Source: a virus (lineage: Duplodnaviria; Caudoviricetes). Taken from it: 64,000 nucleotides of DNA. Below the pieces are notes generated by a model that saw only the letters and a program-made list of their open reading frames with translations, made no database searches and was not told where the DNA came from. Numbering within the stretch: the stretch's first letter is position 1; the number at the start of each line of letters is the position of its first letter. Made by a program: the position numbers and the translations under genes. Location of the stretch: positions 4,811 through 68,810 of the IMG/VR virus record IMGVR_UViG_3300031576_000464; one strand, given 5' to 3'. Shown here one piece after another: positions 1 through 38,362 of this stretch.

Positions 1-252
1 AAGAGGTATTAGATTCTTTATTAGAAAAGAAATATGGTAGTTCTCCACGAAGTTATATAAATAAAGATAAGAGTTTTTATGGTGGTAGCGAAAGAACCCC
101 TTATGATGACAATGATGACGGGAGTATAATATGACTAACATTGAAACAATATTAGTTCAATCCATATTTGCTGGTATTTCTTTGGTAATTACAGTTATAG
201 CTTACAAACTTACAATAGGAATACCAAGAGAAAAGTGGTGGAGGTCATATAA

Positions 253-468
253 TTGAAAGCAAGAACAGAACATATATTTATGTTAGGTGCTGTTGGTTTC
301 TATGTTCTTGATAAACTATTAACTGATATACTCAAATTGGAATCCATATATATAATAATAATATCAGTTATTGTGTTTTACTCATTTTTTGTGTGGTTTG
401 ATAGAAGATACGTATTATGCAGACGAAGTATGTTAGACAAAATAAACGGGGTGCAATTTGATTTATGA
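253..468 (+). CDS. Small membrane protein
   Basis: Two hydrophobic segments; overlaps next ORF. Confidence 0.55.
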   Translation: MKARTEHIFMLGAVGFYVLDKLLTDILKLESIYIIIISVIVFYSFFVWFDRRYVLCRRSMLDKINGVQFDL

Positions 469-662
469 TGGCGTTAACTATTATACTATTTGGTCTTTCT
501 GCTCTATGTGTAGCTGGTGGTATTAAGTGTGCCCATAACCTTAGACATGGTGATTATAAAAATACTGATACTGGTTTTTATCAGGCAATGGTTGGTGTTC
601 TTCTTACTACAGGATTTTGTTTCATTGTTATTGCACTATATATTGAGGGATTATTACAATGA
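465..662 (+). CDS. Small membrane protein
   Basis: Two hydrophobic segments; ATGA overlap with previous ORF. Confidence 0.6.
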   Translation: MMALTIILFGLSALCVAGGIKCAHNLRHGDYKNTDTGFYQAMVGVLLTTGFCFIVIALYIEGLLQ

Positions 663-674
663 TAGGTAATTAAT

Positions 675-902
675 ATGGTGGACATAATAAAGAGAATACT
701 AACTGATGATTATTCTGCGTGGGGAAGGTTTGCCCTTAGAGTATATATAATATCTATGTTTGGTATTCTTTCTTCACCTATATTTGTTTTAATATTTGAT
801 AGTCTTGAGTTATGGGCAATACAAATTATATCATTTTTTTTGTTTCTTGTATGGGGAATGTATAAACAAAACATGGAGAGTAATAAAAAACATGGATACT
901 GA
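675..902 (+). CDS. Small membrane protein
   Basis: Two hydrophobic segments. Confidence 0.55.
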   Translation: MVDIIKRILTDDYSAWGRFALRVYIISMFGILSSPIFVLIFDSLELWAIQIISFFLFLVWGMYKQNMESNKKHGY

Positions 903-1143
903 AGCTACAAATAGAGAATCATTTGCCTATTTCTTAGGATGGTCTATGGCTAAAGTAAGTGATGGAGTACATTCTGATAGAGCGTCTTTCCTTATGGGAT
1001 GGACATTCGCCAAAACATTAGGATTTACAAAAGAGGAATATATATTATATATGAAAAATATAAGACAACGTAATATTAAAGGAACTACATACATATTAGA
1101 AAACTATGATACTATAAAAAGGGGATTACAATATGACAGATAG
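892..1143 (+). CDS. Hypothetical protein (probable start ATG 892)
   Basis: In-frame ATG overlapping the end of the upstream gene; internal FxxGW repeat. Confidence 0.5.
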   Translation: MDTEATNRESFAYFLGWSMAKVSDGVHSDRASFLMGWTFAKTLGFTKEEYILYMKNIRQRNIKGTTYILENYDTIKRGLQYDR

Positions 1144-1648
1144 TAAAAAACCATCTTGGATATGCCAACAATGTACTTATCCTAACACACCAGAAACACA
1201 GGAACGCTGTAATATGTGTGGTGAAATACGCAAAGAACCAGAACTTATTAAGGAGGGTTATCCCATAAGTGATTTAAAAACACTAAAATTATTAAGTAAA
1301 ATTCATGATATAAAAACTATAATAATTTACTTTGATGGTAGTGGTGATAGTGGTAGTATTAATGATTTTCATTGTCTCCCAACATTAAAAGCAGGGTTTG
1401 TAACTTATAATGAACTAACTGATTATAAGAAGGATGAAATTGTTTCAGTTTCAGAAGATGTTGGTGGAAGAATAAAAGAAATGGGTTATTCCATATTAGA
1501 AAAATGTGGATTTGATTGGTATAATAATGAGGGAGGATATGGTGATATTAATATTAAATATGAACATGGGAAGGCTACATATTCTGTAGAGTTTATACAG
1601 CGTGTTATGCAAGAAGAAGAATCATCATTTAAAGGAGTGTTAAAGTAA
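1133..1648 (+). CDS. RanBP2/NZF-like zinc finger fused to DUF6878-like domain
   Basis: N-terminal WICQQCTYPN-x7-CNMC; C-terminal YFDGSGDSG and WYNNEGGYG motifs recognised by eye as DUF6878-like. Confidence 0.7.
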   Translation: MTDSKKPSWICQQCTYPNTPETQERCNMCGEIRKEPELIKEGYPISDLKTLKLLSKIHDIKTIIIYFDGSGDSGSINDFHCLPTLKAGFVTYNELTDYKKDEIVSVSEDVGGRIKEMGYSILEKCGFDWYNNEGGYGDINIKYEHGKATYSVEFIQRVMQEEESSFKGVLK

Positions 1649-1777
1649 TGGCGGTGGATTTGCATGACCTTTTGTTGTATTGTATAAGGAAACACTATGA
1701 AAAGAGGTGTCCCTCCCGAGATGAATGTGATTGCTTTGCTTCTTATCATGATAAGATTAAGGATATAATGAAGGGAT

Positions 1778-2002
1778 ATGAGTAGAAATACTAATCCATC
1801 CAATAGTATAGAATCAGAATATTATGAGAAGAACCGTAAATCTATTTGTAATAAATACGGAGGGAAATGGATTGCAATACTAGGTAAGAAAATAATCGCA
1901 AGTGACAAAGGAATAACACAACTCTATGAAAAAGTAACATCATTAAATCATAAAACACCTTTGATAATGTTCATACCTGAAACAGAGGTACAATTACTTT
2001 GA
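1778..2002 (+). CDS. DUF5678-like small protein
   Basis: KYGGKWIAI..KIIAS motif typical of this archaeal family. Confidence 0.55.
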   Translation: MSRNTNPSNSIESEYYEKNRKSICNKYGGKWIAILGKKIIASDKGITQLYEKVTSLNHKTPLIMFIPETEVQLL

Positions 2003-2145
2003 GCAATACCAACACAACTGAATGTAATCATGAGTGGGATTATGCTAATGAAACTACAAAGGATATTACTCAAACAAAATTCGAGTTCCATACACCATGT
2101 AAGAAATGTGGGAAAATTCAGATAAGTGAGGCTTGGTTATCTTGA
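1999..2145 (+). CDS. Micro zinc-finger protein (48 aa, TTG start; not in ORF track)
   Basis: MSNTNTTECNHEW...CKKCG; TTGA overlaps at both ends. Confidence 0.55.
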   Translation: MSNTNTTECNHEWDYANETTKDITQTKFEFHTPCKKCGKIQISEAWLS

Positions 2146-2387
2146 CAGATGCACTAGAACGTAAAGAGGTGGAATTGAAACCATACTCTCTAACAGAATT
2201 TGAACATGATTACTATAATGTAATGCAAAATCTTAGAGGTGCTTTGATTTGTTGTGACACGATACAAGAAAAAATTAGATTACGAAAAGCAGAATTTCCT
2301 TCATGGAATGATAAATTCTGTACTCTTATTACTTATCAGTCTAAAATTAGCCAGTCGTATCATGCTTTTGAGAGGAATAAAACTTGA
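2142..2387 (+). CDS. Hypothetical protein, MTDALERK N-terminus (TTG start)
   Basis: TTG overlaps upstream TGA; first 24 nt identical to the gene at 29444. Confidence 0.6.
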   Translation: MTDALERKEVELKPYSLTEFEHDYYNVMQNLRGALICCDTIQEKIRLRKAEFPSWNDKFCTLITYQSKISQSYHAFERNKT

Positions 2388-2500
2388 GCAATACATCTCA
2401 CATAGATAGTAAATATAAATATGCTCTTAAATTTGGATTAATGCTTTGTGGTATTTATACTGTAATAATAACAACTGTGGTATTAGTGATTTTAAAATGA
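2384..2500 (+). CDS. Micro membrane protein (38 aa, TTG start; not in ORF track)
   Basis: MSNTSHI... followed by a hydrophobic helix; TTGA and ATGA overlaps at its ends. Confidence 0.5.
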   Translation: MSNTSHIDSKYKYALKFGLMLCGIYTVIITTVVLVILK

Positions 2501-2655
2501 GTAAAGTTAGAATATGTAATTGTAAGGAAGAGATAAAAGACCCACGCCTTCTTATATGTACAAGATGTGGTGAGGAATTAAAGACTAAAACAGAGGAGAG
2601 AAATATAGATGATATGCCAATAATGAGTGGGACTGATATGGAGGAATTACCGTAA
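2497..2655 (+). CDS. Small zinc-ribbon protein
   Basis: CNC...CTRCG; ATG overlaps upstream TGA. Confidence 0.5.
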   Translation: MSKVRICNCKEEIKDPRLLICTRCGEELKTKTEERNIDDMPIMSGTDMEELP

Positions 2656-2849
2656 TGATTGTGTTTAGAGATAAGAGAACTTATGAAATAGCAAGTGTGT
2701 CATACTTTCTTAAAGCTTCTGCTATGTGGTGTAAGTTTGCATGGTTAAATATAAGAAGAAAAGATTATGATGAGGCTTATTATTGTTTATCACAGGCAAT
2801 AGATGTACTACTATACATAGACACAGATGAGGAGGCGGTTTATCCATAA
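2655..2849 (+). CDS. Hypothetical protein
   Basis: ORF track; abuts neighbours. Confidence 0.5.
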   Translation: MIVFRDKRTYEIASVSYFLKASAMWCKFAWLNIRRKDYDEAYYCLSQAIDVLLYIDTDEEAVYP

Positions 2850-3111
2850 TATGTATTTCTTAAAGAGTGACATGAAGATGTTTGATAAGGTATTAGCATT
2901 AAGACCAAATATTATAATAAAAACATTCTTTAACCTATTAGATAAGGGTGATTATGACACAGTAGAGTTTGATGTATATCTTCAAGTTTTTCGTCTATTA
3001 TTAGGAATGTCATCACATTATCCAAACCCATTATGTGAAACATTAAAAGAGTGTATTGAATCAGGATGGAAAAAAAGAGAATTAGTAGAATGTAAAAAAT
3101 GGAAATATTAG
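2827..3111 (+). CDS. Hypothetical protein
   Basis: ORF track; same-strand gene run. Confidence 0.5.
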   Translation: MRRRFIHNMYFLKSDMKMFDKVLALRPNIIIKTFFNLLDKGDYDTVEFDVYLQVFRLLLGMSSHYPNPLCETLKECIESGWKKRELVECKKWKY

Positions 3112-3464
3112 AGATGCACCCATATCTTCATGCCATTTCATCAGCAAGAAAGTTCGGTGGTATACCAGAAGATTACTTACATATACATAATTGGTTTGAC
3201 TATTCTAAAAGAGCTATGGCAGATTATAGACATAGAGCATTAAGACACCATGCAGAGGGTATATTTGAATGTGAAGAAAAATATGGTATTACTATTAAAA
3301 ATAGTGAAGGTAAATTGATACCAACTAGATTTATTGGTGAACAGCATGTTAAGGAAGATTTAGGGTGGATACCCAGTATGAAAGATTGGCTTATTAATAT
3401 TAAAGCAGAGAAATGGATGATTAGAACCCCAACAAAAATAGAAGGATTTGAGAATGAAAAATAA
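3099..3464 (+). CDS. DUF6915-like protein
   Basis: MHPYLHAISSARKFGG..DY..IHNWFD.SK...D.RHRALRHHAEGIF motif recognised as DUF6915. Confidence 0.75.
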   Translation: MEILEMHPYLHAISSARKFGGIPEDYLHIHNWFDYSKRAMADYRHRALRHHAEGIFECEEKYGITIKNSEGKLIPTRFIGEQHVKEDLGWIPSMKDWLINIKAEKWMIRTPTKIEGFENEK

Positions 3465-3807
3465 TGTAAGTGAACATGCAAAAAATACACATGATTGTGA
3501 TTATGAGGGAAATCCAGCAAAAAATAAAACATGTAACTATTGTGGTAAGAGTATTTATTTGAAACCAACAAAAACTTCCAAAATAGCATTTGAATCTGAA
3601 TTATTAAAATATATATCACGCCTTTCAATAAGTAGGAGTAATTATACAATAGACTATGATAGACATGAAATAATAATAGAAAAAGGATTTGTTATATATT
3701 GTTATGTTCCATTTCCTCAAGGTTTAGGATTTAAATCAATAGGGTGTAGAGGTGGTATGTTGGTTATTACTTTCAGTTATGAGTGGTTAGATGATAAAAC
3801 AGAGTAA
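3448..3807 (+). CDS. Zinc-finger (CNYCG family) protein
   Basis: HDCDYEGNPAKNKTCNYCG. Confidence 0.65.
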   Translation: MRMKNNVSEHAKNTHDCDYEGNPAKNKTCNYCGKSIYLKPTKTSKIAFESELLKYISRLSISRSNYTIDYDRHEIIIEKGFVIYCYVPFPQGLGFKSIGCRGGMLVITFSYEWLDDKTE

Positions 3808-4078
3808 TAGACCATTAACTGCGAGGGAGGACATTATGTTCACCGTGTTGAATGGTATAAAACCCATAAGTGATGAAGCATTAAAACTAGTTAAACATAG
3901 TATGTGTTTCTTCATGTCGACATTCTTCGTATGTATACATTATAAAACTGTTATATTTATAGCAGTAGGCGATGCTGATGATAAATGGAAAACTTTAAAT
4001 GAGATTAGATATTCTCCCACAAGCACAAAAATGATTAGAAGATGTAAAGAATATCTTGGGATAAATGATAATAAATGA
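3791..4078 (+). CDS. Hypothetical protein
   Basis: ORF track; overlapping gene run. Confidence 0.5.
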   Translation: MIKQSNRPLTAREDIMFTVLNGIKPISDEALKLVKHSMCFFMSTFFVCIHYKTVIFIAVGDADDKWKTLNEIRYSPTSTKMIRRCKEYLGINDNK

Positions 4079-4476
4079 CAAAATGTCCTAAATGTGATTA
4101 TAGTAATACACCACCGCATATTAAAATATGTAACTATTGTGGTATAGAGTTACCACCTGAACATGATTTGGGTGACGAACAATATATTTCAAATAATAAA
4201 TTATTAAAAGAGGAAGAGGAACAAATTAAGAATATATCTCTTATATTTAAAGCAAGGGATGGATTATCGTGTTGTGTTAAGAAACATTCAACTGATAGAC
4301 ATACAGATGGAATTATAATATATATTACTAAAAGTGAGATGGAAAATTATACTGGAGATTTATCTTGTTCTTTTAGTGAAATAAAAGAAAGATATTCATA
4401 TTATCCTTATGCTGTAAAAACTAAGGGACATGACTCAGCACCAACCATATGGATGGAACACATAAATGTGAGATGA
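4075..4476 (+). CDS. Zinc-finger (CNYCG family) protein
   Basis: CPKCDYSNTPPHIKICNYCG. Confidence 0.7.
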   Translation: MTKCPKCDYSNTPPHIKICNYCGIELPPEHDLGDEQYISNNKLLKEEEEQIKNISLIFKARDGLSCCVKKHSTDRHTDGIIIYITKSEMENYTGDLSCSFSEIKERYSYYPYAVKTKGHDSAPTIWMEHINVR

Positions 4477-4486
4477 TGGTGATATA

Positions 4487-4690
4487 ATGATAACATATTT
4501 AATGTGTTGTAAAATAATACAGGGAGATTCTAAGAATTATGTTGAAGAATATGTTGAAGGTGCTTTGGTAGGACACAGACACAGAAGATGTAGTGCAAAA
4601 TTCTATCAGAGTAAGACCGAGGGGTTTTTATCCACCGCAGACAAACCAGACGTGCCGAAGGGCGAAGGAACTAAAAATGAAATATCATAA
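4487..4690 (+). CDS. Hypothetical protein
   Basis: ORF track. Confidence 0.45.
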   Translation: MITYLMCCKIIQGDSKNYVEEYVEGALVGHRHRRCSAKFYQSKTEGFLSTADKPDVPKGEGTKNEIS

Positions 4691-4958
4691 AATAAGTAAT
4701 AAGGATATACCAATGGATTATATTAGCAATCTATTTGAAATAGTAGAGCAAGATGATAGTAGGAAAACAAGTTTGGTTAGAGTCGATAGTAGTAAGATTA
4801 ATATGGAAATAAAGCGTGGAAATATTTGTGAGGGTGAGAAGGATATAACAGGAAAGTATGTTGGTAATGGAGTTAATCCCCTAGTTGAACTAGGTAATAA
4901 TGTTAGGGGGAGATATATTATGTCATCACCACTAAAGGGAATGGGATTAAGGATATGA
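4593..4958 (+). CDS. Hypothetical protein (start probably at internal ATG, MKYHKIS)
   Basis: ORF track; ATGA overlap downstream. Confidence 0.5.
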   Translation: MQNSIRVRPRGFYPPQTNQTCRRAKELKMKYHKISNKDIPMDYISNLFEIVEQDDSRKTSLVRVDSSKINMEIKRGNICEGEKDITGKYVGNGVNPLVELGNNVRGRYIMSSPLKGMGLRI

Positions 4959-5284
4959 CACTAAATCAAAGAGAAAAGGCATTAGTTATGTCTGTATTGT
5001 TAAAAGATAGGTTGAGTTCAATGATAGATTCATCCATGAGTCAAGAAGAAAGGCAAGAACTATCAAGGTTCTTCTCTGTTATAACAGTAAAATTAGCAGA
5101 GAGATTAAACGTTGATAAAGAAACTTTGACGGAGGCAGTAGAGGATTTAATGTCATCAGGAATACCTAGATTGGCATTGGATGTATTAGATGAAATAGAC
5201 CTCGAGTTAGAGAAACAGAGAGAGCAAAAAGAGTCAATACAAAATAGTAAGTTTGAATTATATGGTGATGGTGATATAATATAA
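4955..5284 (+). CDS. Hypothetical helical protein
   Basis: ORF track; coupled starts and stops. Confidence 0.6.
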   Translation: MTLNQREKALVMSVLLKDRLSSMIDSSMSQEERQELSRFFSVITVKLAERLNVDKETLTEAVEDLMSSGIPRLALDVLDEIDLELEKQREQKESIQNSKFELYGDGDII

Positions 5285-5640
5285 TGGGTTTTTTTACTTC
5301 AAAAAAGGATGATAATAATATGGTGGTAGATATGTCAATACCGTTAGGAGATAAACCAGATGTTGATATAACTGATATAACACGGAGGGATTTAGCCATG
5401 TTATATCTTGGTATAGCATTAGAAACAAGACGAAGCATTGAGAATAAACCAGAAATAAGGAATTTCATGATTAAAATACTAAGACGTGCAGTACTAGCTT
5501 CTGTTCCAGAATATAATCCAGAACAAATAAAACAGATACAGGATAATATAAAGAAGATGTTACTTAAAGGAGTATTAATGAAAGAGTTAGATAAAGCAGC
5601 TAATAATGTAATGCGTGGGAAAAATCCATTCGATATATAG
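5284..5640 (+). CDS. Hypothetical protein
   Basis: ORF track. Confidence 0.6.
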   Translation: MGFFTSKKDDNNMVVDMSIPLGDKPDVDITDITRRDLAMLYLGIALETRRSIENKPEIRNFMIKILRRAVLASVPEYNPEQIKQIQDNIKKMLLKGVLMKELDKAANNVMRGKNPFDI

Positions 5641-5682
5641 TAAAGATATGAAACATAGTTTAGTTATGATGTATAAACAACA

Positions 5683-6702
5683 TTGTATAATATGGAGAAA
5701 ATGGTGATAGGTAAAGTAGAGAAACACACCACCACAACTAAGAGTAATGACATGAAGAGAAAAATAAAGTTATCTATAAATGAGGTAACAGGAACAATGA
5801 CAAAAATGATGAAAAAAGAAACCACAAAATATGAAACTGGTAGAATACCAACAATAGATATTAGCTTCGACCAATATAGACCAAGAAAGTTTGGTAAATA
5901 TATTGAGATAAATGGAGAGAAGGAATTAATTAAGGGTGCTATTGAAGAAGGATTACCACTACTCATTGAAGGAGATAAGGGTATAGGCAAGACAATGGCT
6001 ATAATAACCGTATGTGCAGAGATGGGATGTGGCATAGTTCCTTATGCTTGTTCTAGTGGAACAACAATGGGAGATATACTAGGGAGAACACAACTTCGTG
6101 GTGATAACTCTGTGTTTGAATTAGGTGTGTTACCAAAGTCAATAGAGGTGGCAAATCACTTCAAGCGTGGGATATTATATCTAGATGAGCTTAGTTCCTT
6201 AGAACCAGAAATACAAAAACTATTGAATCCACTAATAGATGATAGGAGAGAGATAGTGGTTAATGATAAGGTGTACTCAATAGACAAAGATGTAATGTAC
6301 ACAGTAATAGCATCACAGAATCCAATAGGATATCAGGGAACTAATCCACTCAATGAAGATTTAAGGAGTAGATTTGTGGGTGAAGCGTGGAGATACCCAC
6401 CATCAGTACAAATTGATAAGGTGATTGATTGGACAGATATAGACCCAAAGCATAGAAAACAACTATTGCAACTGGCAACAGATACTCTGTCATCAAGACA
6501 GAAGGGTGATGTGGAATATGTCATATCTATTAGAGATATTGCCCTATTTACCAGAGTTTATAGAATGTGGAAGAAAAAGAAAGATGAGAAATATCTTGAA
6601 AGGTCTATCCATAATGGCATATTAATAAAGTATGCAGAAATATCTGAGAGGGAACTAATTAAAACCCGTGCAGAGGAAACATTTGGAGTGAAGTTAGAAT
6701 GA
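5683..6702 (+). CDS. MoxR/CobS-like AAA+ ATPase
   Basis: Walker A GDKGIGKT, Walker B LYLDE, NP.GY.GT.PL...LRSRF; adjacent to vWA gene. Confidence 0.88.
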   Translation: MYNMEKMVIGKVEKHTTTTKSNDMKRKIKLSINEVTGTMTKMMKKETTKYETGRIPTIDISFDQYRPRKFGKYIEINGEKELIKGAIEEGLPLLIEGDKGIGKTMAIITVCAEMGCGIVPYACSSGTTMGDILGRTQLRGDNSVFELGVLPKSIEVANHFKRGILYLDELSSLEPEIQKLLNPLIDDRREIVVNDKVYSIDKDVMYTVIASQNPIGYQGTNPLNEDLRSRFVGEAWRYPPSVQIDKVIDWTDIDPKHRKQLLQLATDTLSSRQKGDVEYVISIRDIALFTRVYRMWKKKKDEKYLERSIHNGILIKYAEISERELIKTRAEETFGVKLE

Positions 6703-8471
6703 GTGGGGTAATAAAGAGAACGGATAAAGCAGAAGGAGAGGTATTAGACAGCGGTGAGGTATATATCCCCTCACTCCATATTTCTGAAGAAGATTTAATG
6801 GAAAGAACAAAAAACATATTTGAACAAGTTATAGGAGTTCCAATAATAATAACTGAAGATGATAAATGTAATTGGATTTCAATGGATGATAATGCCAAAT
6901 CACACATAATAAATATACAAAATCCACCAGAACCAGAAATACCAAAACAAACAGCACTACACCATGAATTAGGACATTACTTCTTTAGAAGTCCAGTACA
7001 AAAAGCATTTGAGATATTAGAAAGAATGGCAGTTTCCGATTTTACTGAAAAGGAACAGGTATTTGTTAAGGAAATATACAAAACAACTTACAATTTAATA
7101 GAGGATCAAAGAATAGAATCAATGCTTGGTGATATTTATGAAGGAACAAATAATAGATTTCTTGAAATGAGGGAAGCATTGGGATATAGAATATATAAAG
7201 ACATGAAAGATAAAGTTGATGACCCAATACATGCCCTACAAGCTTCAAGATTCTTCAATGAACACCTAGTTCCAGATAAATATAAAGAAGCATTAAGCAC
7301 TATGGAAGATGTTAAGCTAACTGGTAGAAATGGTGGTATAGTAATGACTACAAAGTATATAGAAAACGTACTGAAACCATACCTCAAGTCCATCACAATA
7401 CCAAATATAAAGGAACATAGAGGATGTAGCGGATGTAATGGAACAGGTAGAGGTTGTTCAAAATCACTATCAAAATTAAGTAATATGGGGAAAAGGTGTG
7501 AGAGAGATAATTCTAATTGTGACCATAGAGGTTTTGCAAATGTAAAACAGGAAAGTGATGAAGAAGGAGATATTGATGAAGGTATAGGTGATGATTTAGA
7601 AAGTGATGTAGATTCTCTTAAAAATCAGGGTCAAAAGGAGTTAGATAAGGCTAGAGAAGATTTAGAGAGAGTATCAAGAAGTTGGGAAAAAGAAAAATCA
7701 TTAACTTATGAAACAACTAATATAGAAAGACCGACAGGAGAATACAAAGTAAATGTTAATGTGGCACAGGATATGAATAGAATGTTTAAACGAATACAGA
7801 ATAAGACAAAACTAACTCTTGGACAGGATGGAGAATTTGTATCAATCCCACACGTTATACAAAGAAAGGCACAGGGATATGGTGATGTAATGATGAAAAC
7901 TAAGAGGGTGAGTGGTCTTACTGTTCTAGTATCTATTGATGCAAGTGGTAGCATGGATTCACCAGATATGATAGGAGAAGCACGTAATATGGCAGCTACA
8001 TTGTATAGTGCAATAAAGAACATTAAAGGAATTAATATGAATGTGATTGTTTGGGCAGGTGATGGCGGTAAAGATATTGGTATATCAGAAGCGGGAAGAA
8101 TAAAAGAATGTGCAGGTATAACGTGCGATGGTAGCTATTATCAAACACCCACACCAATGGCATTAGACTATTCAACAAGAAGATTAATGGAGATGAAGGG
8201 TAACAAAAAGGTCATGTTCTTCATAACAGATGGACAACCTGCCTGTGGAGGATATGATACAGAATACCTAACAGAGATGTCAAGAAAGGCAGTATTAAGA
8301 GCAGAAAGAATGGGAATTAAAATGATGGGTGTATTTGTTGGTAGTGATGAAGATAATATGAAAAGAATATTTAAGAGTAGATATGCCCGAGCACCTACAA
8401 TGAAGGAGGCAAACACTTTAATAACTAAGAAGTTTAAGGATATAGTGCTTAAGCAGGTGAAAAGACGTTAA
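6699..8471 (+). CDS. vWA-domain protein with N-terminal HEXXH domain (CobT-like partner)
   Basis: MIDAS DASGS, TPT, ITDGQP; HHELGH; acidic linker; CxxCxGxG motif. Confidence 0.85.
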   Translation: MSGVIKRTDKAEGEVLDSGEVYIPSLHISEEDLMERTKNIFEQVIGVPIIITEDDKCNWISMDDNAKSHIINIQNPPEPEIPKQTALHHELGHYFFRSPVQKAFEILERMAVSDFTEKEQVFVKEIYKTTYNLIEDQRIESMLGDIYEGTNNRFLEMREALGYRIYKDMKDKVDDPIHALQASRFFNEHLVPDKYKEALSTMEDVKLTGRNGGIVMTTKYIENVLKPYLKSITIPNIKEHRGCSGCNGTGRGCSKSLSKLSNMGKRCERDNSNCDHRGFANVKQESDEEGDIDEGIGDDLESDVDSLKNQGQKELDKAREDLERVSRSWEKEKSLTYETTNIERPTGEYKVNVNVAQDMNRMFKRIQNKTKLTLGQDGEFVSIPHVIQRKAQGYGDVMMKTKRVSGLTVLVSIDASGSMDSPDMIGEARNMAATLYSAIKNIKGINMNVIVWAGDGGKDIGISEAGRIKECAGITCDGSYYQTPTPMALDYSTRRLMEMKGNKKVMFFITDGQPACGGYDTEYLTEMSRKAVLRAERMGIKMMGVFVGSDEDNMKRIFKSRYARAPTMKEANTLITKKFKDIVLKQVKRR

Positions 8472-8656
8472 TGTTATATTCAATGAGTATAGAAAGGTTG
8501 GCGAGGAATATAGAAGATTTAGAAGAAGAATTATTTATCTTACCAATGCACAGATACAGAAAGAAGTGGATGGAAGCACAATCAGAAACAGAACTATTAA
8601 GAATACTACGAATGTTATTGGAGTGGAAGAATATGAATTCTAGGGTAACTATATGA
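8471..8656 (+). CDS. Hypothetical protein
   Basis: Abuts vWA stop. Confidence 0.45.
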   Translation: MLYSMSIERLARNIEDLEEELFILPMHRYRKKWMEAQSETELLRILRMLLEWKNMNSRVTI

Positions 8657-8898
8657 TGAAAAGAAGGAAGGAAGTATGGATAAAGAAGTATGGGGATTTC
8701 ATGGGGAAGGTTATGATGTTCATTGTATTTGATGGTGATAAGGGTAACACTCTTGATGGTAGAGAGGTTAATAAGATAGATGGCAGGTGGGTGTGTGAAA
8801 CATGACACTTGAAGCATTAATTCCCTTCATATCATTCTTGGCAGGATTTTTTACTAATACAATATTAAGACAAATGGTTATAAGAAGGAAAAAGAAAC

Positions 8899-9306
8899 AT
8901 GACACAACAAAATAGAATCCCATTGGAAGAATTTACAAAAAGACTTTCTATGATAGCAATAGACTGTGACATGTATCAACAAATACTAAATGATGCAAAG
9001 AAGGCAGAACTTTATAATGAATTACTAGGGAATGTAAAAACTTTTGGAATAGAAAGAATCGAATATACTAGAATGGAACAAGGAAAAGAACACACAGAAC
9101 AAGATGAAAAAAACTCCAAGATTGTAGATGAGCTTAGAAGCACCATTATTACAAAACTAAAATCAGAAATTGAGGAAGAAACAAGACACATAAATCATCC
9201 AAAGGGAATATATAGATGTGTAGAACATAACTGTGATTATAAAAAACGAACTTGTGAGTTATTAATGGAACAAATTCAATCACTACTAAAGGAGAATGAG
9301 AAATGA
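8899..9306 (+). CDS. Hypothetical protein
   Basis: ORF track; C-terminal Cys/His cluster. Confidence 0.6.
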   Translation: MTQQNRIPLEEFTKRLSMIAIDCDMYQQILNDAKKAELYNELLGNVKTFGIERIEYTRMEQGKEHTEQDEKNSKIVDELRSTIITKLKSEIEEETRHINHPKGIYRCVEHNCDYKKRTCELLMEQIQSLLKENEK

Positions 9307-9942
9307 AATATTACTGTCCTGTCTGTAAATCAGATTATTGTTTTGATGGAAGCACAGAAGAAACAATAAAGAACGATGTAAAACAACATGAAACCCATAG
9401 CAGTATGCATTTATCAATGTTGAAGGAGATCAATAATTTAGAATGACTAGACTCTGCTGGACATGCAACAAGCCAGTCTGCAAGTGGTATCTATTACACC
9501 GATTAAATGACATCATACATCGCAGACCAAAGATAGAAAGATACCCAGACAATACTCCGAAAACGTATGAGGATAAGAGTGATACACAATGATAGAGTTA
9601 GATTCAGAGAAGGAAAAACGATTTATTGCCTTTCGTAGATTTTTGAAAGCAAAGAATGTAAGAGAAGCAAAAATTGAATTGAAAGACGGAACTATTTTAT
9701 CATACAAGAGTGAGGTAGAGTCAGGGAGTACAGCTTTAGGGTGACAATGTTAGAATTGAGTGAACAAGATAGAAAATTTTTAGATGTTCTGAATAGACAC
9801 CCAGACTCAAGTGTAATTCCAATGTGTAATAAATGTCTAATTCCAGCAGAGTATGATAAAGAAGAATGGTTATATCGTTGTCCAAAGTGCAAAGCAGAGG
9901 GTTGTCTTGTAGGATGATTAATACTTTAGTGAGGAAATGTAA

Positions 9943-10182
9943 ATGAAATTAAAAATTAAACCAAACGCTGATAATAATTGTTTAGAACTTACAATGTATG
10001 ATAAGAGGAGTGAATCTAATATATCACTCACATTGTTTCAAATATCGGAATTATTTGATTATTTAAAACAAGAAAGAATAAAAAATATAATAGTATTATC
10101 AGATTATGGAGAAGAAGAAACCATATATGGTTTGGGAATAGACCAAATCACCAAACAATACATTCGGGGGAATAAGTCTTGA
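9943..10182 (+). CDS. Hypothetical protein
   Basis: ORF track; GAGG-like element upstream. Confidence 0.5.
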   Translation: MKLKIKPNADNNCLELTMYDKRSESNISLTLFQISELFDYLKQERIKNIIVLSDYGEEETIYGLGIDQITKQYIRGNKS

Positions 10183-10961
10183 CAAAACTATATAACTGTG
10201 ATTTTAATGGTAAGGGAAAACTGTGTTATATAGCAGATAATAAAAAAGAACTCATTTGGCATTATTTTAATAAACATATATCAACAGTGAACATTCACAA
10301 ATCAGGGGAAAAACAAAAGAGATGAAGTGTAAATGAGAGTAAAAGTACAAAGAATGTTTCCTAATTGTCAAAAGTACAAAAAATGTTGTTCTGAAAACTG
10401 GAAAAAGGAATTAGAAAATATAAAGGACATTCCTACCCCCATAATTATAGAAAAACATGACACAGAAAATGTTAAAGAGTATAATAAAACGAATAAAAGA
10501 GAGGAGGATTTTGAAAGTGGAATCTGATTTATGTGATGCCGAGATTCTATTAAAAACCATGTGTCATCATTGTGATGAAGCGAGAAATGAGGAAGATATG
10601 GGAGAACCATGTGATTGTTGTGGAAAATCAGTCTGCTGTTATTGTAGAGAAAGGTGGAATAGCACATGAAATATGGAGAAATAATATTTATAGTGATATT
10701 TGCAGGAACATCACTTTTATTATTATGGTTGATAAAGAAACCAATATTATGGTTATGTGATAAGGTTTATAAATGGATGGAAAAGAAATATGGTGTGAGT
10801 TTAAAAGATGAGTAAAATTGCAAAAATGAAAAAGGAACTACATATGAAGGAGATGGCTATGAAGAACCTAATTAAAAAGGGGTGGGTATTACGACAAGAG
10901 ATAATACAATTAAAGCATACCATAGAAGTATTACAGGCTAGTCCCATGATGCCAATAAGAA

Positions 10962-11375
10962 GTGATAATAATGAAAGTAACTTATAGTAGCACAGAGTGT
11001 TCTTGTGGATATAAAAACAATCCACATAATAACATAACATGTAATTACTGTGGGATTCATTTACAGAAAATAGAATATGGAGATTCAGATGCGGTAATAG
11101 ATGAAAATTATAAAGAAATAGGAAAAATAATGACAACACATCATATTAATGTAAAGACCTTAATAGAAACTGGAGAGGGAGAATTATTTTGTAAGTTGGA
11201 AAATCCAATGACAGATAATAAATGGGAAATGTTTGTAGAAATATATGATAAAACTGGATATTTTATATTTACTGTTACAGATGGAGAAGTAGGAAACGGA
11301 TTACACATATTTTGGTTTATAAATGACGCTGGAATGAAAAAGAAGTATGAAATGTTAAAATCAAGATTCACATGA
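10962..11375 (+). CDS. Zinc-finger (CNYCG family) protein
   Basis: CSCGYKNNPHNNITCNYCG. Confidence 0.7.
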   Translation: MIIMKVTYSSTECSCGYKNNPHNNITCNYCGIHLQKIEYGDSDAVIDENYKEIGKIMTTHHINVKTLIETGEGELFCKLENPMTDNKWEMFVEIYDKTGYFIFTVTDGEVGNGLHIFWFINDAGMKKKYEMLKSRFT

Positions 11376-11457
11376 CAATAACAATAGTAAAGAGTAAAGT
11401 TAAATGTGAAAAGTGTAAGAAGGATGTTTTTAATGTTGAGGGTAAAGATGTACGTAA

Positions 11458-11886
11458 ATGGTGTTGGTGTACTCTAACATGAATTGTAATGCGTGTGGAT
11501 ATGAGGGAACACCAGATAAGATTAAGAAGTGTAACTACTGTGGGTTATTAATAAGACCAAAAACTGAAATACACGAACCAATAGAACTTCCAGACTATGA
11601 AGATAAAGACCATAAGAAACTCGTACATATATTACACTCTTTTGGGTGGAAAATATTTAGAATAAATCAAAATTCAACATCGAACGAAATATGTATATGT
11701 GCTGAAACAGAAGAACACAGAGATAATATGTGGGATAGCCTGTGTTCCATACATGCTATGACAGGATATTTAATTTCTGCAATAGAAATGAAGACTGAAG
11801 ATGGTAAAATGAAAGTATGGTTTATGAACAAAGAATCTATTATAACTAGATTTAAAAGTAGTATTGAGGGTAAAAGAGCACTATGA
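11458..11886 (+). CDS. Zinc-finger (CNYCG family) protein
   Basis: CNACGYEGTPDKIKKCNYCG. Confidence 0.7.
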   Translation: MVLVYSNMNCNACGYEGTPDKIKKCNYCGLLIRPKTEIHEPIELPDYEDKDHKKLVHILHSFGWKIFRINQNSTSNEICICAETEEHRDNMWDSLCSIHAMTGYLISAIEMKTEDGKMKVWFMNKESIITRFKSSIEGKRAL

Positions 11887-12074
11887 AATTAATAAGATGT
11901 TTGAATTGTAGCTTCTCCCACACGGGAGTTTGGGGAGATAAAGAGTTATGGGAACACCAAAAGTTTGAAGAAGAAACAAATGGTAAAAATTGGATGGGGT
12001 TTGCAGAGGACAAGGATGTTGTTAATATGAGAGATAATATGAGAAGGGCAGGAATAGATGTCACAGAAGATTGA
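11883..12074 (+). CDS. Small Cys/His protein
   Basis: CLNC...H; ATGA overlap. Confidence 0.5.
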   Translation: MKLIRCLNCSFSHTGVWGDKELWEHQKFEEETNGKNWMGFAEDKDVVNMRDNMRRAGIDVTED

Positions 12075-12375
12075 CATATGTGTATGTGGATATAAGGGAA
12101 CACCCAATCATATTAAAAATTGTAATTACTGTGGAAAACCAATTAAAAAAGAAAAAGTCAGGAGAGTAAAAAGAAAAGGAAAACAATCACAAATGGAATT
12201 ATTACATGAATTGGAATCATATTTTACAAAACAAATACCAAAAGTAATAGATACAAGACAATCAGAAGAACAAGGAGATGGTAGTTTCTGTTTAGTATTC
12301 AAAACAGATAAGCTGAGAAAAAACTCATTTAATTTTACAGTTGAAACAACTAATATTTATAAAGATTTGGGTTAG
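12058..12375 (+). CDS. Zinc-finger (CNYCG family) protein
   Basis: CVCGYKGTPNHIKNCNYCG. Confidence 0.7.
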   Translation: MSQKIDICVCGYKGTPNHIKNCNYCGKPIKKEKVRRVKRKGKQSQMELLHELESYFTKQIPKVIDTRQSEEQGDGSFCLVFKTDKLRKNSFNFTVETTNIYKDLG

Positions 12376-12421
12376 AAGTTGTGTGTCTTGGTTGTGAGTA
12401 TGTAATATTAGGAAAAAAGGG

Positions 12422-12769
12422 ATGGTGTGTATAATGACAGTATGTACAAAGTGTGGATATAGAAATACCCCCGACAAGATTGAAATGTGTAACTACTGTG
12501 GAAAGAATTTTGATGTGGGGGAAGAAGGATTAGTTGTAACCAATGACAAAGTAGTTAATATATTAAAAAAGTATGGTCATAAAGTTGTCAAGGTTATAGG
12601 TGACGAGGGTGATGGTTACTATTATATAGAATTAGATAGAACAACATATAATGGTTATATGGAAGATTTTACTGTTGAGATGTCAGAGATTGAAAGCCAG
12701 TCTGGATATAGATTGCATGGAATAGACGTTAATTCAGGTAAGGATATTAAAATATGGCTAAAGAAATAA
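12422..12769 (+). CDS. Zinc-finger (CNYCG family) protein
   Basis: CTKCGYRNTPDKIEMCNYCG. Confidence 0.7.
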   Translation: MVCIMTVCTKCGYRNTPDKIEMCNYCGKNFDVGEEGLVVTNDKVVNILKKYGHKVVKVIGDEGDGYYYIELDRTTYNGYMEDFTVEMSEIESQSGYRLHGIDVNSGKDIKIWLKK

Positions 12770-13107
12770 TGGAAATAAATGATAGAAGAACAGAGTGTTC
12801 TTGTGGATATAAAAACACACCAAACCATATATCACGATGTAACTATTGTGGGTTGGCTTTATTAAGTATAATTAATAATTCAATGAGAGATTTAGACATT
12901 GCACTATCAAGTATAGGAATAGACGTGTTTGGTTCTGGAGTACATGTAGAAGAATTACCAGATAACACCATAGTAGTAGAAATAAGTGATGTATATTCTG
13001 GATTTATTCCGAAAATAAGTAAATATTTTAAAATATTACATGCGGGAAGCAGTATAACTTTAGGTTATAGAAAGTTAATATTAAAACACCTACCTCTTAA
13101 TACATGA
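12754..13107 (+). CDS. Zinc-finger (CNYCG family) protein
   Basis: CSCGYKNTPNHISRCNYCG. Confidence 0.7.
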   Translation: MAKEIMEINDRRTECSCGYKNTPNHISRCNYCGLALLSIINNSMRDLDIALSSIGIDVFGSGVHVEELPDNTIVVEISDVYSGFIPKISKYFKILHAGSSITLGYRKLILKHLPLNT

Positions 13108-16457: not shown

Positions 16458-17453
16458 TTATTTCTTTTCTTTTGGGTCTGATACCCCAGCTACGTCTAAG
16501 ATATATTCTTTATCTTCTATTCCGTCTTTGGGAGAGTCTACCATTCTCATAAATCTTTTACTTCCACGCTTCACTAGATATATTCTATAAGTTGAGGCAT
16601 GACCTACAACATTTCCTCCTATAGGTTTAATTGGGTCCATATGAAACTGTGATGCTGTTGGGTCTGACTGTACTTGGTTTGTCATTATAACTGCACACCT
16701 AAAAAAGTATGATACATTCTTAAGATGTTCCATGAATCTAGATAAGTTATTTTGTCTTACTGATAATGTTCCCCTCCCCAGGTATTCTGCCCTAAACTGT
16801 CCTATGGAACCGTCAACTACTATGAGTTTGAACTTCTTCTCTAACATGAGTGGTGTAAGATTATCTAGTGTATTAATTAGTTCATCTGTATTAGGTGCAT
16901 GTATGTATGTAATCTTGTGGAAATATTTTGCTTTTCCCTCCTCTTTATCTTTAACATACCCACGAGATATGGCTATCTCTAATATTCTCTCAGGGCGGAA
17001 TGTATCCTCACAGTCCAACCATAGAACATTAAAGTCATGTTTTTCTATGGCTTCTATTGCCGCAACATTACACATCTGTGTCTTTCCGCTTCCATATTCA
17101 CCATATAATTCTGTTACAGCTTCTAATTCGAATCCACCCTTTAGTATGTAGTCTATATTAATAGACATTGTGGGTATCTTAATTAGAGTCTCCCTAAAAT
17201 CATACATATCCATAGTGTCCATCTGTTTTGGGCGGCATAGTTTCATTTCTTCTAATCTCTTCCACGCCAATGTCACTATATCTCTTGCGTCTGGTTGTGA
17301 TATGCCAGATATTTCATTAAGTTCCATTGAGCCTCTTATACATATGTCAAATATAGTTGTTACACCTGCAGAGTTTAGTTTTTTTATTGATACTTCCCCC
17401 ACACCTGGAAGGTCTGTTATTCCAAATTCACCATCAGTTCTTTTTTTATTCAT
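16458..17453 (-). CDS. radA: Archaeal RadA/Rad51-family recombinase
   Basis: N-terminal HhH (LPGVG), Walker A GEYGSGKTQ, LIVVDG..FR.EY.GRG.L..RQ, TNQV, PIGG..VGH.STYR. Confidence 0.95.
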   Translation of the reverse strand: MNKKRTDGEFGITDLPGVGEVSIKKLNSAGVTTIFDICIRGSMELNEISGISQPDARDIVTLAWKRLEEMKLCRPKQMDTMDMYDFRETLIKIPTMSINIDYILKGGFELEAVTELYGEYGSGKTQMCNVAAIEAIEKHDFNVLWLDCEDTFRPERILEIAISRGYVKDKEEGKAKYFHKITYIHAPNTDELINTLDNLTPLMLEKKFKLIVVDGSIGQFRAEYLGRGTLSVRQNNLSRFMEHLKNVSYFFRCAVIMTNQVQSDPTASQFHMDPIKPIGGNVVGHASTYRIYLVKRGSKRFMRMVDSPKDGIEDKEYILDVAGVSDPKEKK

Positions 17454-17692: not shown

Positions 17693-17971
17693 TTAAGTCT
17701 CATTTCTTTTCTTCTCCTCAATCATCCTAACTATACAATCAGGACACGGTATATATCCGTTTTCAATTTTTTCTGCATACTCATCTCCTATTTTGTCATT
17801 AAGACTAGGTATCCATGCATCATGAAACCATATAATACAACATATAGGAAATTTACATATTAATCCCTGGTAGAACCAATCATGAACTTCCCATCCATTA
17901 TTTAAATCAGAAGTGTCCTCCTCACATACTGGACACCATCCTTCTGGTAAATCGTCTAACTCAGTCTCCAT
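17693..17971 (-). CDS. Cys-rich protein (probable start ATG 17971)
   Basis: CPVC, CKFPICC, CPDC; start overlaps MCM stop region. Confidence 0.5.
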   Translation of the reverse strand: METELDDLPEGWCPVCEEDTSDLNNGWEVHDWFYQGLICKFPICCIIWFHDAWIPSLNDKIGDEYAEKIENGYIPCPDCIVRMIEEKKRNET

Positions 17972-28090: not shown

Positions 28091-28609
28091 TTATGATTTT
28101 ACCATATTACCCTTTAACATTCTAAATACAGAGTCTAAATCTCCACGCTCATTAAAGTGTTTTTTCTCTGTTACTACTATTTTATTGTTAAGTTCGTTTA
28201 TCACTTTAACCACATTCATTAGATTGTTAATCTGTTGGGTTGTACCCCTATCTGGAATATTTCCATCCATCTTAGATTGATAAAGTGCCATTAGAAGGTC
28301 TTCAAGAGATAATTTTGCTATCATGTCCAGCATACTCTTCAAGTCTTCTGGGTCCCTTGTGTCTAGGGCATTTATAAATTTAAGAAAGTCTTTTCGTATA
28401 GCACAAACAGCCCCTTCCTCGTACTTTGGACACTTTCCATTCCCACCCATATCTACAGAACGATAAACACAGTCATCGCACTTTGCTGGGAGGTTGGCAT
28501 ATTTTAGATTCTTTACACTATTGAATGGGCTAACTGTCTTATGTTTATTAAGTACAAGTTTTGCCTTATCATCTATAGGTATGATTTGAAATATGTCTTC
28601 TTCAACCAT
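28091..28609 (-). CDS. Putative terminase small subunit (Zn-finger plus helical)
   Basis: Position directly upstream of terL; CDDC..C..C cluster. Confidence 0.5.
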   Translation of the reverse strand: MVEEDIFQIIPIDDKAKLVLNKHKTVSPFNSVKNLKYANLPAKCDDCVYRSVDMGGNGKCPKYEEGAVCAIRKDFLKFINALDTRDPEDLKSMLDMIAKLSLEDLLMALYQSKMDGNIPDRGTTQQINNLMNVVKVINELNNKIVVTEKKHFNERGDLDSVFRMLKGNMVKS

Positions 28610-38000: not shown

Positions 38001-38362
38001 TTTCCTGTACCAAATACTATTGTACCATTGGTGGTAACAGTTGTACATGGTGTATCTCCAGTATCTTGTGTATTGTTTTCAAAGTCAAATTTTGATATAC
38101 ATAGTGGTATCTTGACAGAACCATACCCATTGTTATTTTGACCACTTTCATCTACAATATCATTTTCAAATCCTAAATACGTCTTAAGACCATTCATATC
38201 TACTAGGTCATGGTGATATGTAATTTCATCATGTATTGAGGCATCTATATCGGCTGGTAATTCTATGGTTCCTTGGTCTACTGCTCTATCACCTTCCATT
38301 GTTATTTCAGTAGAGAGAACTTTTATATCAACACCATTTTTAAATACTTTTACTTGTGACAT
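35027..38362 (-). CDS. Tail-tip hub protein with three LamG (ConA-like) domains
   Basis: Three copies of S.W.K...WHH...T.DG...Y.DG...G..D...Y...L; hub-like segments between them. Confidence 0.8.
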   Translation of the reverse strand: MSQVKVFKNGVDIKVLSTEITMEGDRAVDQGTIELPADIDASIHDEITYHHDLVDMNGLKTYLGFENDIVDESGQNNNGYGSVKIPLCISKFDFENNTQDTGDTPCTTVTTNGTIVFGTGKVGTYSGTFDGSTDYLALSDEANYDFERTDKISLSLWVKTSAAATNGLITKKTTSATAGWDLRLKSTGKAQFVLYSGTNTLDVESTASINDNAWHHVVVTYDGLSLAAGVVFYIDNVISATVTNTNTLAASILNSVVVTVGAFQDASNKYTGDMDNAYIFRKQLTAEEVTALYHEGYLRFVTGEFSGDALNLDGIYSIKLQNETPFDFDIINTFSIGFFIKSSTVGVAQKVISKKNTDTSAGYDVRFNTSNHLIFSFHNASATQYSVTYTTSILDGSWHHVICTFDGLSNQNGMKIYVDGSLVSTGSALGMTGSILNSINPFIGSGGDGSDKFIGYVDGVRIYSRVLSSLEIPRLGLKKPPIQIMWLGGNITKIDKKSFSKTAIIESIGSGLGNTEVRGEIYQNRTPEYIVENIIRKFTDFRFFSFGLPSGLTMTTYVADGKVIDIVRDLAAIMNKSFHVTPWGDFHLEENEIEASGITLQQGKNAIINDNTADDTEIVNELTVIGANVIYRQIEDQFDGNGSQKVFTLTDPPISMRVEHPIGIQKTPEIDYTFDTLTRTVTFVVAPAAGTNNIKVEYEFEKPLIIKGTKPSSIALNGLHAKRLVASWIKNRLDGVRYVQGYLGKFKDIKSKIKAEIPTLVTLLDINKTVIVKNSLKNINTAFVIKSITFKYPEGKTLTNLGEYSFDQLEFDKMTTEKIHDLEHAISQVKELSEYKSPEEILGLTDTVDLVVQESPAETLSLADVVDTTEVYQATYNADVISKTSFLSHIDMGQNTYDHYGTNHGTVTGTEIYVLATHAVGGYAGDFAAGSFINRVELANEASFDFAITSPFTVSFWMKSSTTGTIKSLITKKSTVSSVTAGWAASTTATNAILFEISNGTTQYAVTSSQTTLANGSWHLVTCTFDGTSNRSGMYIYVDGTVTNGTALAMTGTVTNATAVRMGQDGSGTTQYTGQLDELRIYSRSISSAEVTDLVNNIKGSFYSSRVIYTA

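Follow-up and report, generated by a model that had tools for sequence, protein, structure and literature searches.

Nine genes on a stretch of 64,000 nucleotides of viral DNA encode proteins that carry the same small zinc finger. The stretch, called the window below, corresponds to bases 4811-68810 of the 68,810-bp IMG/VR viral record IMGVR_UViG_3300031576_000464. To judge from their sequences, the nine genes are best explained as lineage-specific, tandemly expanding genes for two-module accessory proteins of an archaeal-type tailed virus. The first module would be a zinc ribbon of about 20 residues with four cysteines (Cys4) and two rubredoxin-type knuckles, of the DZR/Zn_Ribbon_1 type and with an NZF-like signature. 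After a poorly ordered linker, the second would be a small, fast-evolving alpha/beta domain, mostly of the kind found at the C-terminus of GspM/PulM and in one member DUF6878. It appears plausible, though short of probable, that a constant docking finger is combined here with variable small domains and that the proteins act in accessory functions or host takeover.

The finger motif and its members

A six-frame search with the expression [CH]-x(1-2)-C-[GDT]-Y-x-[NGS]-[TN]-P-x5-C-N-[YM]-C-G found exactly nine sites in the window, eight on the plus strand and one on the minus strand. Every site lies inside an open reading frame (ORF) that an earlier note on this DNA had assigned to a nine-member finger family (Table 1). 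Fifty mononucleotide shuffles contained no match to the full motif and none to the pentapeptide C-N-[YMFW]-C-G, which upholds the family as first described. The 4.8 kb by which the viral record exceeds the window contain no further copy of the finger. With a hidden Markov model (HMM) built from the nine fingers, the members score 50-58 bits and the best non-member reaches 12.8 bits among 2,238 ORFs of this genome and six related complete genomes. The finger family is sharply bounded.

The finger is N-terminal in eight of the nine ORFs, with the first ligand at residue 4-17 (about 3-15 with the starts chosen by gene callers), and internal in ORF 63272 (residue 74). The parts that follow it are 73-141 amino acids (aa) long. 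Over the 23 members known from this virus and its relatives, the pattern from the second cysteine onward reads C-[GDNT..]-Y-x-[NG]-[TN]-P-x5-C-N-[YMF]-C-G-x2-[FIL], in which the Tyr, the Pro, the Asn, and the Gly are invariant. The inner residue of the second knuckle is Tyr in 20 members, Met in two, and Phe in one.

The type of zinc finger

Four cysteines serve as zinc ligands in eight window members, and in ORF 3448 the first pair is His-x-Cys. The first knuckle is C-x-C or H-x-C, not C-x-x-C, in four window members. The finger had been described in the earlier note as RanBP2/NZF-like, with a loop one residue too long. This loop length was confirmed: 11 residues separate the second and third cysteines (C-x3-[N]-x7-C) in all members, and the RanBP2 spacing C-x2-C-x10-C-x2-C is found in none of the nine window members and none of the 23 family members. 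Among window members, a Trp precedes the first cysteine in ORFs 1133 and 63272 only. An Asn stands at the NZF place of the loop in five of nine window members and in 15 of 23 family members, and Gly or Ser in the rest.

The Pfam gathering cut-offs are 27 bits for Zn_ribbon_RanBP (PF00641), 27.3 for DZR (PF12773), and 25 for Zn_Ribbon_1 (PF13240). Isolated fingers matched Zn_ribbon_RanBP at 25.2 bits (ORF 63272, E 9.8e-6), 16.5 bits (ORF 1133), and 13.5 bits (ORF 12422); the remaining window fingers gave no match to it at E <=0.05, and no member reaches the cut-off. The isolated fingers also stay below the DZR and Zn_Ribbon_1 cut-offs, with 20.2 and 17.4 bits for ORF 4075 and 16.2 and 16.9 bits for ORF 12422. 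NZF/RanBP2 fingers dominate the lists of matches to solved structures. The best matches of the ORF 1133 finger are Npl4 (E 0.002) and TRABID (E 0.008), followed by the NZFs of HOIP, HOIL-1L, and TAB2/3, and those of the ORF 63272 finger are the RanBP2 fingers of RBM10 and RBM5 (E 0.02-0.09) and also Npl4. All these alignments need a one-residue gap. The family profile matches the TRABID NZF at 16.5 bits with a gap, as against 35-41 bits without gaps for bacterial ribbons of the form C-x2-C-G-Y-x-N-x-P-x5-C-x2-C-G. These bacterial ribbons, which occur for example at the N-termini of FHA and pentapeptide-repeat proteins, have the same spacing as the viral finger and are its best non-family profile matches among 1.84 billion proteins. 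They are members of DZR/Zn_Ribbon_1 above the cut-off and have sub-threshold matches to the RanBP model.

The likeness to NZF/RanBP2 fingers comprises the size of the module (about 25-30 residues), its two C-x-x-C knuckles, Thr or Gly followed by Tyr after the second cysteine, Asn-x-Pro in the loop, a hydrophobic residue inside the second C-x-x-C and, in two window members, the Trp before the first cysteine. The viral fingers differ in the loop (11 versus 10 residues) and in the lack of the Trp in seven and of the Thr in eight of the nine; moreover, their setting is a virus of archaeal type, whose candidate host family yielded no ubiquitin in the 16 genomes searched. The NZF ligand signature consists of the structural Trp before the first cysteine, the loop Asn, Thr-(Phe/Tyr) after the second cysteine, and a hydrophobic residue in the second C-x-x-C, where the second of the two residues inside the knuckle is part of the ligand patch (PMC11372445). 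The complete signature (Trp, Thr-Tyr, Asn, Met) is present only in ORF 1133 and its orthologue. The other members combine Gly-, Asp-, Asn-, Gln-, or Glu-Tyr after the second cysteine with Tyr or Phe in the second knuckle.

Compared with the bacterial ribbons, the viral finger lacks an aromatic residue before the third cysteine, exists in 9-10 copies per genome, each followed by a folded domain, and has an invariant Asn with Tyr, Met, or Phe inside the second knuckle, both of which vary in the bacterial ribbons. Since G-Y-x-N-x-P is shared with these ribbons and the second-knuckle Asn-Tyr is not, the latter seems to be specific to the family and not demanded by the fold. Our reading is that the finger is an offshoot that diverged from the DZR-type ribbons of prokaryotes, because its nearest non-family relatives pass the DZR/Zn_Ribbon_1 cut-offs and the family members do not; it resembles RanBP2/NZF distantly, at the level of the motif. 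By these comparisons, it stands nearer to the generic zinc ribbons of prokaryotes, within the same Pfam clan, than to the eukaryotic fingers. The resemblance claimed in the earlier note is thus real at the level of the motif and of the solved matches, but it does not extend to membership, given the longer loop and a best score of 25.2 against 27 bits.

The C-terminal domains

ORFs 10962, 11458, 12422, and 4075 and their orthologues share one C-terminal domain with a Trp that is invariant in the alignment. ORFs 10962 and 11458 match each other in blastp (E 3.5e-4). In hhalign, the group formed by these two matches the 12422 group at E 7e-5 with 63% probability, and ORF 4075 matches the latter at E 2.2e-4. 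The pattern that the earlier note had seen in ORFs 10962, 11458, and 12422 therefore reflects true homology. AlphaFold2, run on the alignment of the shared domain, predicted an alpha-beta-beta-alpha-beta-beta arrangement with a predicted local distance difference test score (pLDDT) of 76-88 (residues 40-115 of ORF 12422). The best Foldseek matches of this model are the C-terminal domains of EpsM/PulM (E 1.3e-3, TM score 0.65 by target and 0.45 by query, 11% identity). Structure neighbours in the ESM Atlas are GspM, PilN/PilO, and GspL_C for ORF 11458, and HMA, GspL_C, GspM, and PilN for ORF 12754; the Atlas feature matches are all below 0.85 and indicate no family. The C-terminal parts of ORFs 12058 and 12754 gave no profile match to the shared-domain alignment.

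The C-terminal domains of GspM, GspL, PilN, and PilO are established dimerisation modules. These ferredoxin-like domains, GspM including EpsM and PulM, have the same topology as that predicted for the shared viral domain, and they serve homo- and heterodimerisation in type II secretion systems and type IV pili (titles of 8ab1 and 1uv7). The identity is only 8-11%, and the viral domain has neither a membrane anchor nor the context of a secretion system. As this small fold is very common, the match indicates an architecture, not a function or an ancestry.

In ORF 1133, residues 56-166 are DUF6878 (PF21798; E 4.9e-13, 49.6 bits against a cut-off of 24.3, model positions 14-126 of 128). The motifs G-S-G-D-S-G and D-W-Y-N-N-E-G-G are invariant in the alignment. 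The orthologue and a number of homologues carry the same Pfam match, and these homologues, like ordinary DUF6878 proteins and unlike ORF 1133, have no finger. Because the domain occurs elsewhere without a finger, ORF 1133 is a true fusion, in which an early-gene domain that already existed acquired the finger. No Foldseek match at E <=0.001 was obtained for the DUF6878 model, and a literature search found no paper that mentions this domain. A likeness to ATP-grasp proteins was considered and dropped, as the best VIA-align match (Z 5.2, to part of an ATP-grasp domain) lies within the noise. A gene for DUF6915 lies close to DUF6878 in the window (1133-1648 and 3099-3464), in the contig L073 described below (3200-3709 and 4813-5163), and in L083 (737-1539). 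L083 is an unrelated phage-like contig, in which a finger-less DUF6878 is directly followed by DUF6915 and which also encodes a PD-(D/E)XK nuclease and an SNF2 helicase. The recurrent vicinity suggests that DUF6878 and DUF6915 may form a functional pair.

No fold can be assigned to ORFs 3448 and 63272, which do have orthologues or counterparts in position. In the models, the linkers behind the finger have pLDDT values below 50. The C-terminal parts thus comprise a dominant, rapidly diverging small domain in four members, to which a fifth is linked by its fold class alone, a fusion, and three to four others. The interchangeable and mostly unrelated domains of the earlier note were overstated, since at least four of nine are one domain and a fifth is of the same fold class; the addition of the finger to an independent domain is nonetheless genuine in the case of DUF6878.

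Distribution and turnover of the family

When 1.84 billion representative proteins were searched exhaustively with HMMER, 30 reached E <=0.001. Besides the nine of the window, about 12 were true members, and the remainder were generic bacterial ribbons along with a few artefacts from repeat proteins. A single 21-kb contig (L073/L074) carries ten of these additional members. This contig stems from a close sister virus and is fully syntenic, with 80% identity in MCM, 85% in MoxR, 78% in RadA, and 71% in the vWA protein. The earlier note had considered that the finger might prove single-copy in related viruses; here, a relative holds ten copies. Six orthologue pairs connect the two viruses (ORFs 1133, 3448, 4075, 11458, 12422, and 12754; Table 1). 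In all six pairs, identity is higher in the finger (56-80%) than in the rest of the protein (26-56%), and the core genes are more conserved than both, at 70-85%. At the level of DNA the orthologues share only about 70% identity, at which synonymous sites would be saturated.

More distant contigs hold one or two members each. The member P0021 lies between the MoxR and vWA genes, the place of the single member in contig L075 (L075:734-1252), and P0026 is adjoined by a weaker second finger protein. P0020, the positional counterpart of ORF 63272, is the other member with an internal finger. ORF 63272, which unlike the eight other members is on the minus strand, lies upstream of the portal gene, and P0020 is likewise found upstream of a portal gene.

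The six nearest relatives in IMG/VR, whose terminases are about 65% identical, have the structural, replication, and MoxR-vWA genes in common with this virus, but no member of the finger family and none of the small early ORFs. The finger profile also found no member in 12 related IMG/VR records and in three metagenome-assembled genomes (MAGs) with related capsid genes. An exact degenerate DNA pattern for the finger had no match in IMG/VR outside the record itself. The same pattern matched three contigs of the JGI metagenomes, which were dismissed as chance (GC 42-53%, with only C-N-Y-C-G inside unrelated ORFs). The family alignment, used as query in a word-indexed search of 5.8 billion proteins, recovered the proteins of the window alone. 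PHROGs gave nothing below E 0.0027, a match to the zinc ribbon of NrdD only, and literature searches on thaumarchaeal viruses and archaeal RanBP2 fingers yielded nothing on the family. The finger family is lineage-specific, and it is rare and dispensable in the wider virus group. On the strength of these searches, it is a new and very narrowly distributed subfamily of a known fold class, which no Pfam or PHROG model captures, and its expansion to 9-10 copies is an unusual arrangement.

Around their MoxR-vWA genes, the early arms of the six relatives (G001-G006; L053-L072) each contain 3-10 other Cys4 zinc-ribbon ORFs, which are mutually unrelated. By their sequences, mini-proteins with zinc ribbons are typical of this virus group as a whole, in families specific to single lineages. 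In G001, an ORF of 56 aa with the exact RanBP2 spacing (C-x2-C-x3-N-x6-C-x2-C) is placed between MoxR and vWA (28165-28335).

Within the array, turnover is visible between the two sister genomes. A DNA synteny map covering 10.6-13.5 kb marks ORF 10962 as an insertion that only this virus has, with no counterpart in L074, and L073:12851 as confined to the sister. ORF 12058 and its L074 counterpart are similar at 72% over 273 nt (11883-12150), which covers an upstream ORF and the finger. The similarity ends about 15 nt past the finger, and unrelated coding sequence lies beyond. This upstream ORF of 63 aa (11883-12074, plus strand) overlaps ORF 12058, is conserved in DNA in the sister, and starts with its own Cys-x2-Cys...His pattern. 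Between paralogues, finger stretches of about 50-60 nt match one another at 75-83%. ORFs 10962 and 12754 have in common an identical run of 28 bp (10992-11019 and 12790-12817) that encodes T-E-C-S-C-G-Y-K-N, in fingers that are otherwise about 67% identical. The chance of such an identity is estimated at a few per cent over all pairs, and the tract may be due to a short gene conversion. From the two genomes, this suggests that the array evolves by birth and death of genes, occasionally with recombination inside the DNA that encodes the finger or at its end.

The virus, its genome, and its host

The first 253 bp of the record are repeated directly at its end (record 68558-68810, window 63748-64000) with one mismatch. 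The genome is therefore complete, with about 68.56 kb, either terminally redundant or circular as assembled. The record is classified as linear in IMG/VR despite the repeat, and the start of ORF 63272 falls inside it. The genome encodes a large terminase of the T4 type (best named match, Halogranum tailed virus 1, 30%), a portal protein, a capsid protein 76-80% identical to those of six IMG/VR relatives, and the replication proteins given in Table 1, and it is that of a tailed virus of archaeal type. The GC content is 31-37% across most of the window. The viral DNA was found in only one cave-metagenome sample, in two DNA runs, and no RNA runs are listed. Capsid relatives have been binned with Nitrosopelagicus, with Poseidoniales, and even with a Paraglaciecola MAG. 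The host is therefore probably an archaeon of marine type, or one of caves. The viral MCM was of no help in this respect, since it is just 31-40% identical to the cellular MCMs of the family to which the bin belongs.

The plus-strand arm (window 1-13107) consists of small, dense, and often overlapping ORFs around the conserved pair of a MoxR AAA+ ATPase and a vWA protein. The pair is kept in all six relatives and in L074 and forms the conserved core of this genome arm. The vWA protein has an HExxH motif (H-E-L-G-H) at residue 89 and a Cys-rich stretch ahead of the vWA domain, which suggests a zincin-like metallopeptidase domain fused to vWA. On the minus strand, a protein of 1111 aa (35027-38362) contains three lectin domains of the concanavalin/laminin-G type (Laminin_G_3, E 1.9e-66) and is probably a tail fibre or an adhesin. 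Its further match, to the receptor-binding N-terminal lectin-like fold of clostridial neurotoxins, is one of fold only.

Table 1. Finger-family members and other genes of the window, with orthologues in the sister contig L073/L074.
Gene	Position in window	Strand	Orthologue	Features
ORF 1133, 171 aa	1133..1648	+	L073:3200-3709 (finger 70% identical, rest 42%)	finger 1163-1222: Trp, Thr-Tyr, Asn, C-N-M-C; C-terminal DUF6878
ORF 3448, 119 aa	3448..3807	+	L073:5524-5841 (hhalign E 1.3e-4; blastp 1.8e-10)	gene caller start 3454; finger 3490-3546
ORF 4075, 133 aa	4075..4476	+	L073:6225-6566	finger 4084-4143; shared alpha-beta-beta-alpha-beta-beta C-terminal group
ORF 10962, 137 aa	10962..11375	+		caller start 10971; finger 10998-11054; shared C-terminal group
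ORF 11458, 142 aa	11458..11886	+	L073:11936-12334	caller start 11479; finger 11485-11544; shared C-terminal group
ORF 12058, 105 aa	12058..12375	+		finger 12079-12135, then basic linker and short C-terminal part
ORF 12422, 115 aa	12422..12769	+	L073:13182-13526 (61% identical); also P0011	finger 12443-12502; modelled alpha-beta-beta-alpha-beta-beta C-terminal domain
ORF 12754, 117 aa	12754..13107	+	L074:10001-10318 (P0025), 38% identical	finger 12796-12852; overlaps the end of ORF 12422 by 16 nt
ORF 63272, 166 aa	63272..63772	-		internal finger 63494-63553; Asp-Trp-x-Cys start
DUF6915 gene	3099..3464	+		Pfam E 4.7e-46
MoxR-type AAA+ ATPase	5683-6702	+		Pfam AAA_5, 3.1e-17
vWA protein	6699-8471	+		Pfam VWA, 2.9e-5
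RadA/Rad51	16458-17453	-		
MCM helicase	17956-19959	-		

A docking module and the alternatives

In the favoured reading, the finger would be an autonomous recognition module. The Tyr after the second cysteine, the Asn/Thr-Pro of the loop, and the Asn-Tyr/Met/Phe of the second knuckle would form an exposed patch at the position of the NZF ligand patch, which in NZFs is a Thr-Phe/hydrophobic patch. The constant finger would tether the variable C-terminal domains to one common and conserved partner, most likely a protein. The adaptor library or anti-defence toolkit proposed in the earlier note would be a reasonable hypothesis along these lines. The C-terminal domains, whose predicted fold often dimerises, would diversify through birth and death and through recombination where the finger-coding DNA ends. 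An autonomous module with a function of its own is favoured by the disordered linker, the N-terminal or internal place of the finger, its fusion to an independent domain, and its conservation, which is the highest within these proteins. The existence of DUF6878 without a finger elsewhere and the internal position of the finger in two members further suggest that it behaves as a portable module. Several points weigh against this reading. The finger has no known partner, and no activity could be recognised in the C-terminal domains with Pfam, PHROGs, and structure comparisons. The Tyr, the Asn-x-Pro, and the Gly are also kept in generic bacterial ribbons, so that the conservation may in large part be structural. 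Models of the finger have low to middling pLDDT (45-59 in ORF 12422, 69-78 in ORF 1133). In rubredoxin-type knuckles the two inner side chains point outward, and the surface exposure of the Asn-Tyr is taken from this general geometry. Finally, the lack of the family in the six nearest relatives makes it dispensable for this virus group.

Much of this also bears on a simpler explanation, in which the ribbon would only stabilise tiny proteins and a single finger-plus-ferredoxin-like gene would have been duplicated in tandem and left to drift, with no common partner or function. Both G-Y-x-N-x-P and C-x-x-C-G are features of generic DZR/Zn_Ribbon_1 ribbons, at least four and perhaps six of the C-terminal domains have one fold, as expected from duplication and divergence, and the close relatives are without the family and all rich in unrelated small zinc-ribbon ORFs. 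Such a structural cap is nevertheless rather doubtful, as the finger has been attached to DUF6878, which elsewhere functions on its own, and is internal in two members. In addition, the second-knuckle Asn-Tyr (or Met/Phe) is invariant over 23 members and not in the outgroup ribbons, and flexible linkers would leave the finger unpacked from the domain that it should stabilise. The finger could also read nucleic acids, binding single-stranded RNA or DNA like those of ZRANB2, RBM5, and FUS, with the C-terminal domain oligomerising or acting, so that the proteins would be small regulators of host or viral transcripts. This is considered unlikely. It is consistent with the solved matches of the ORF 63272 finger, RBM10 and RBM5 being RNA-binding, and with strongly basic linkers in some members (ORF 12058). 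RNA-binding RanBP2 fingers, moreover, often have Asp-Trp before the first cysteine and Asn in the second C-x-x-C, as ORF 63272 does. The fingers, however, carry net charges anywhere between -4 and +4, and among the complete proteins several are acidic (pI 4.5-5.5). With invariant residues that are neutral and aromatic, the charge range of the fingers favours the recognition of a protein over electrostatic binding of nucleic acid. The viral loop has Thr/Asn-Pro in place of the aromatic-x-x-Arg of RNA-binding fingers, and a family of readers would be expected to vary its reading module rather than to hold it constant.

A bolder form of the docking hypothesis regards the finger as the counterpart of NZF in a prokaryotic virus, docking to one conserved host hub such as a beta-grasp/ubiquitin-like or a small abundant protein. 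The 9-10 paralogues would constitute an adaptor library, whose fast-evolving and possibly dimerising C-terminal domains recruit or block different targets early in infection and whose new members arise by recombination at the end of the finger. We regard this version as quite unlikely in its full extent. The ankyrin/PRANC (F-box-like) and BTB-kelch families of poxviruses offer an analogy. They too consist of many paralogues in an accessory arm, with one short constant module, diversification of the rest, and quick turnover of copy number between relatives, and their partner is the cullin ligase. There is no relationship in sequence or fold, the constant module here being a zinc ribbon.

A narrower proposal concerns ORF 1133 and its orthologue only, whose finger would be a functional NZF, binding a host modifier or protein of the beta-grasp (ubiquitin-like) type and thereby recruiting DUF6878. 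Both keep the Trp-x-Cys, Thr-Tyr, Asn, and C-N-Met-C of the full signature (PMC11372445), and the best solved matches of the finger, Npl4 and TRABID, are ubiquitin-binding NZFs. The loop is, however, one residue longer than in any NZF, the Pfam score is 16.5 against 27 bits, and the host is itself only a probable one. Searches for ubiquitin (PF00240) in the virus and in 16 genomes of the family of the Nitrosopelagicus bin, which holds a related viral contig, found none, and a ThiS-type protein was likewise not found in the virus; these results count against the proposal, and it appears improbable. It is most improbable that the fingers are adaptors or substrates of the viral MoxR AAA+/vWA pair. 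The only member in L075 and the 56-aa ORF of G001 do lie between the two genes, and the family and the pair are on the same genome arm both here and in L073. Such adjacency is expected by chance, however, in early regions crowded with assorted zinc-ribbon ORFs, and the six relatives keep the pair without the finger family.

Significance

Small zinc-ribbon ORFs are the commonest unexplained genes of archaeal virus genomes, and the finger family provides a handle on them, with one sharply defined finger held constant over 9-10 paralogues in each of two related viruses. If there is a single partner, it would identify the host or viral hub that is targeted by this virus lineage, and ligand patches like those of NZFs would be used outside eukaryotes. 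Should no partner exist, the family would be a clean example of birth-and-death evolution of zinc-stabilised mini-proteins. In either case, it offers a new profile for the annotation of such viruses, in which these genes are now missed by Pfam and PHROGs.

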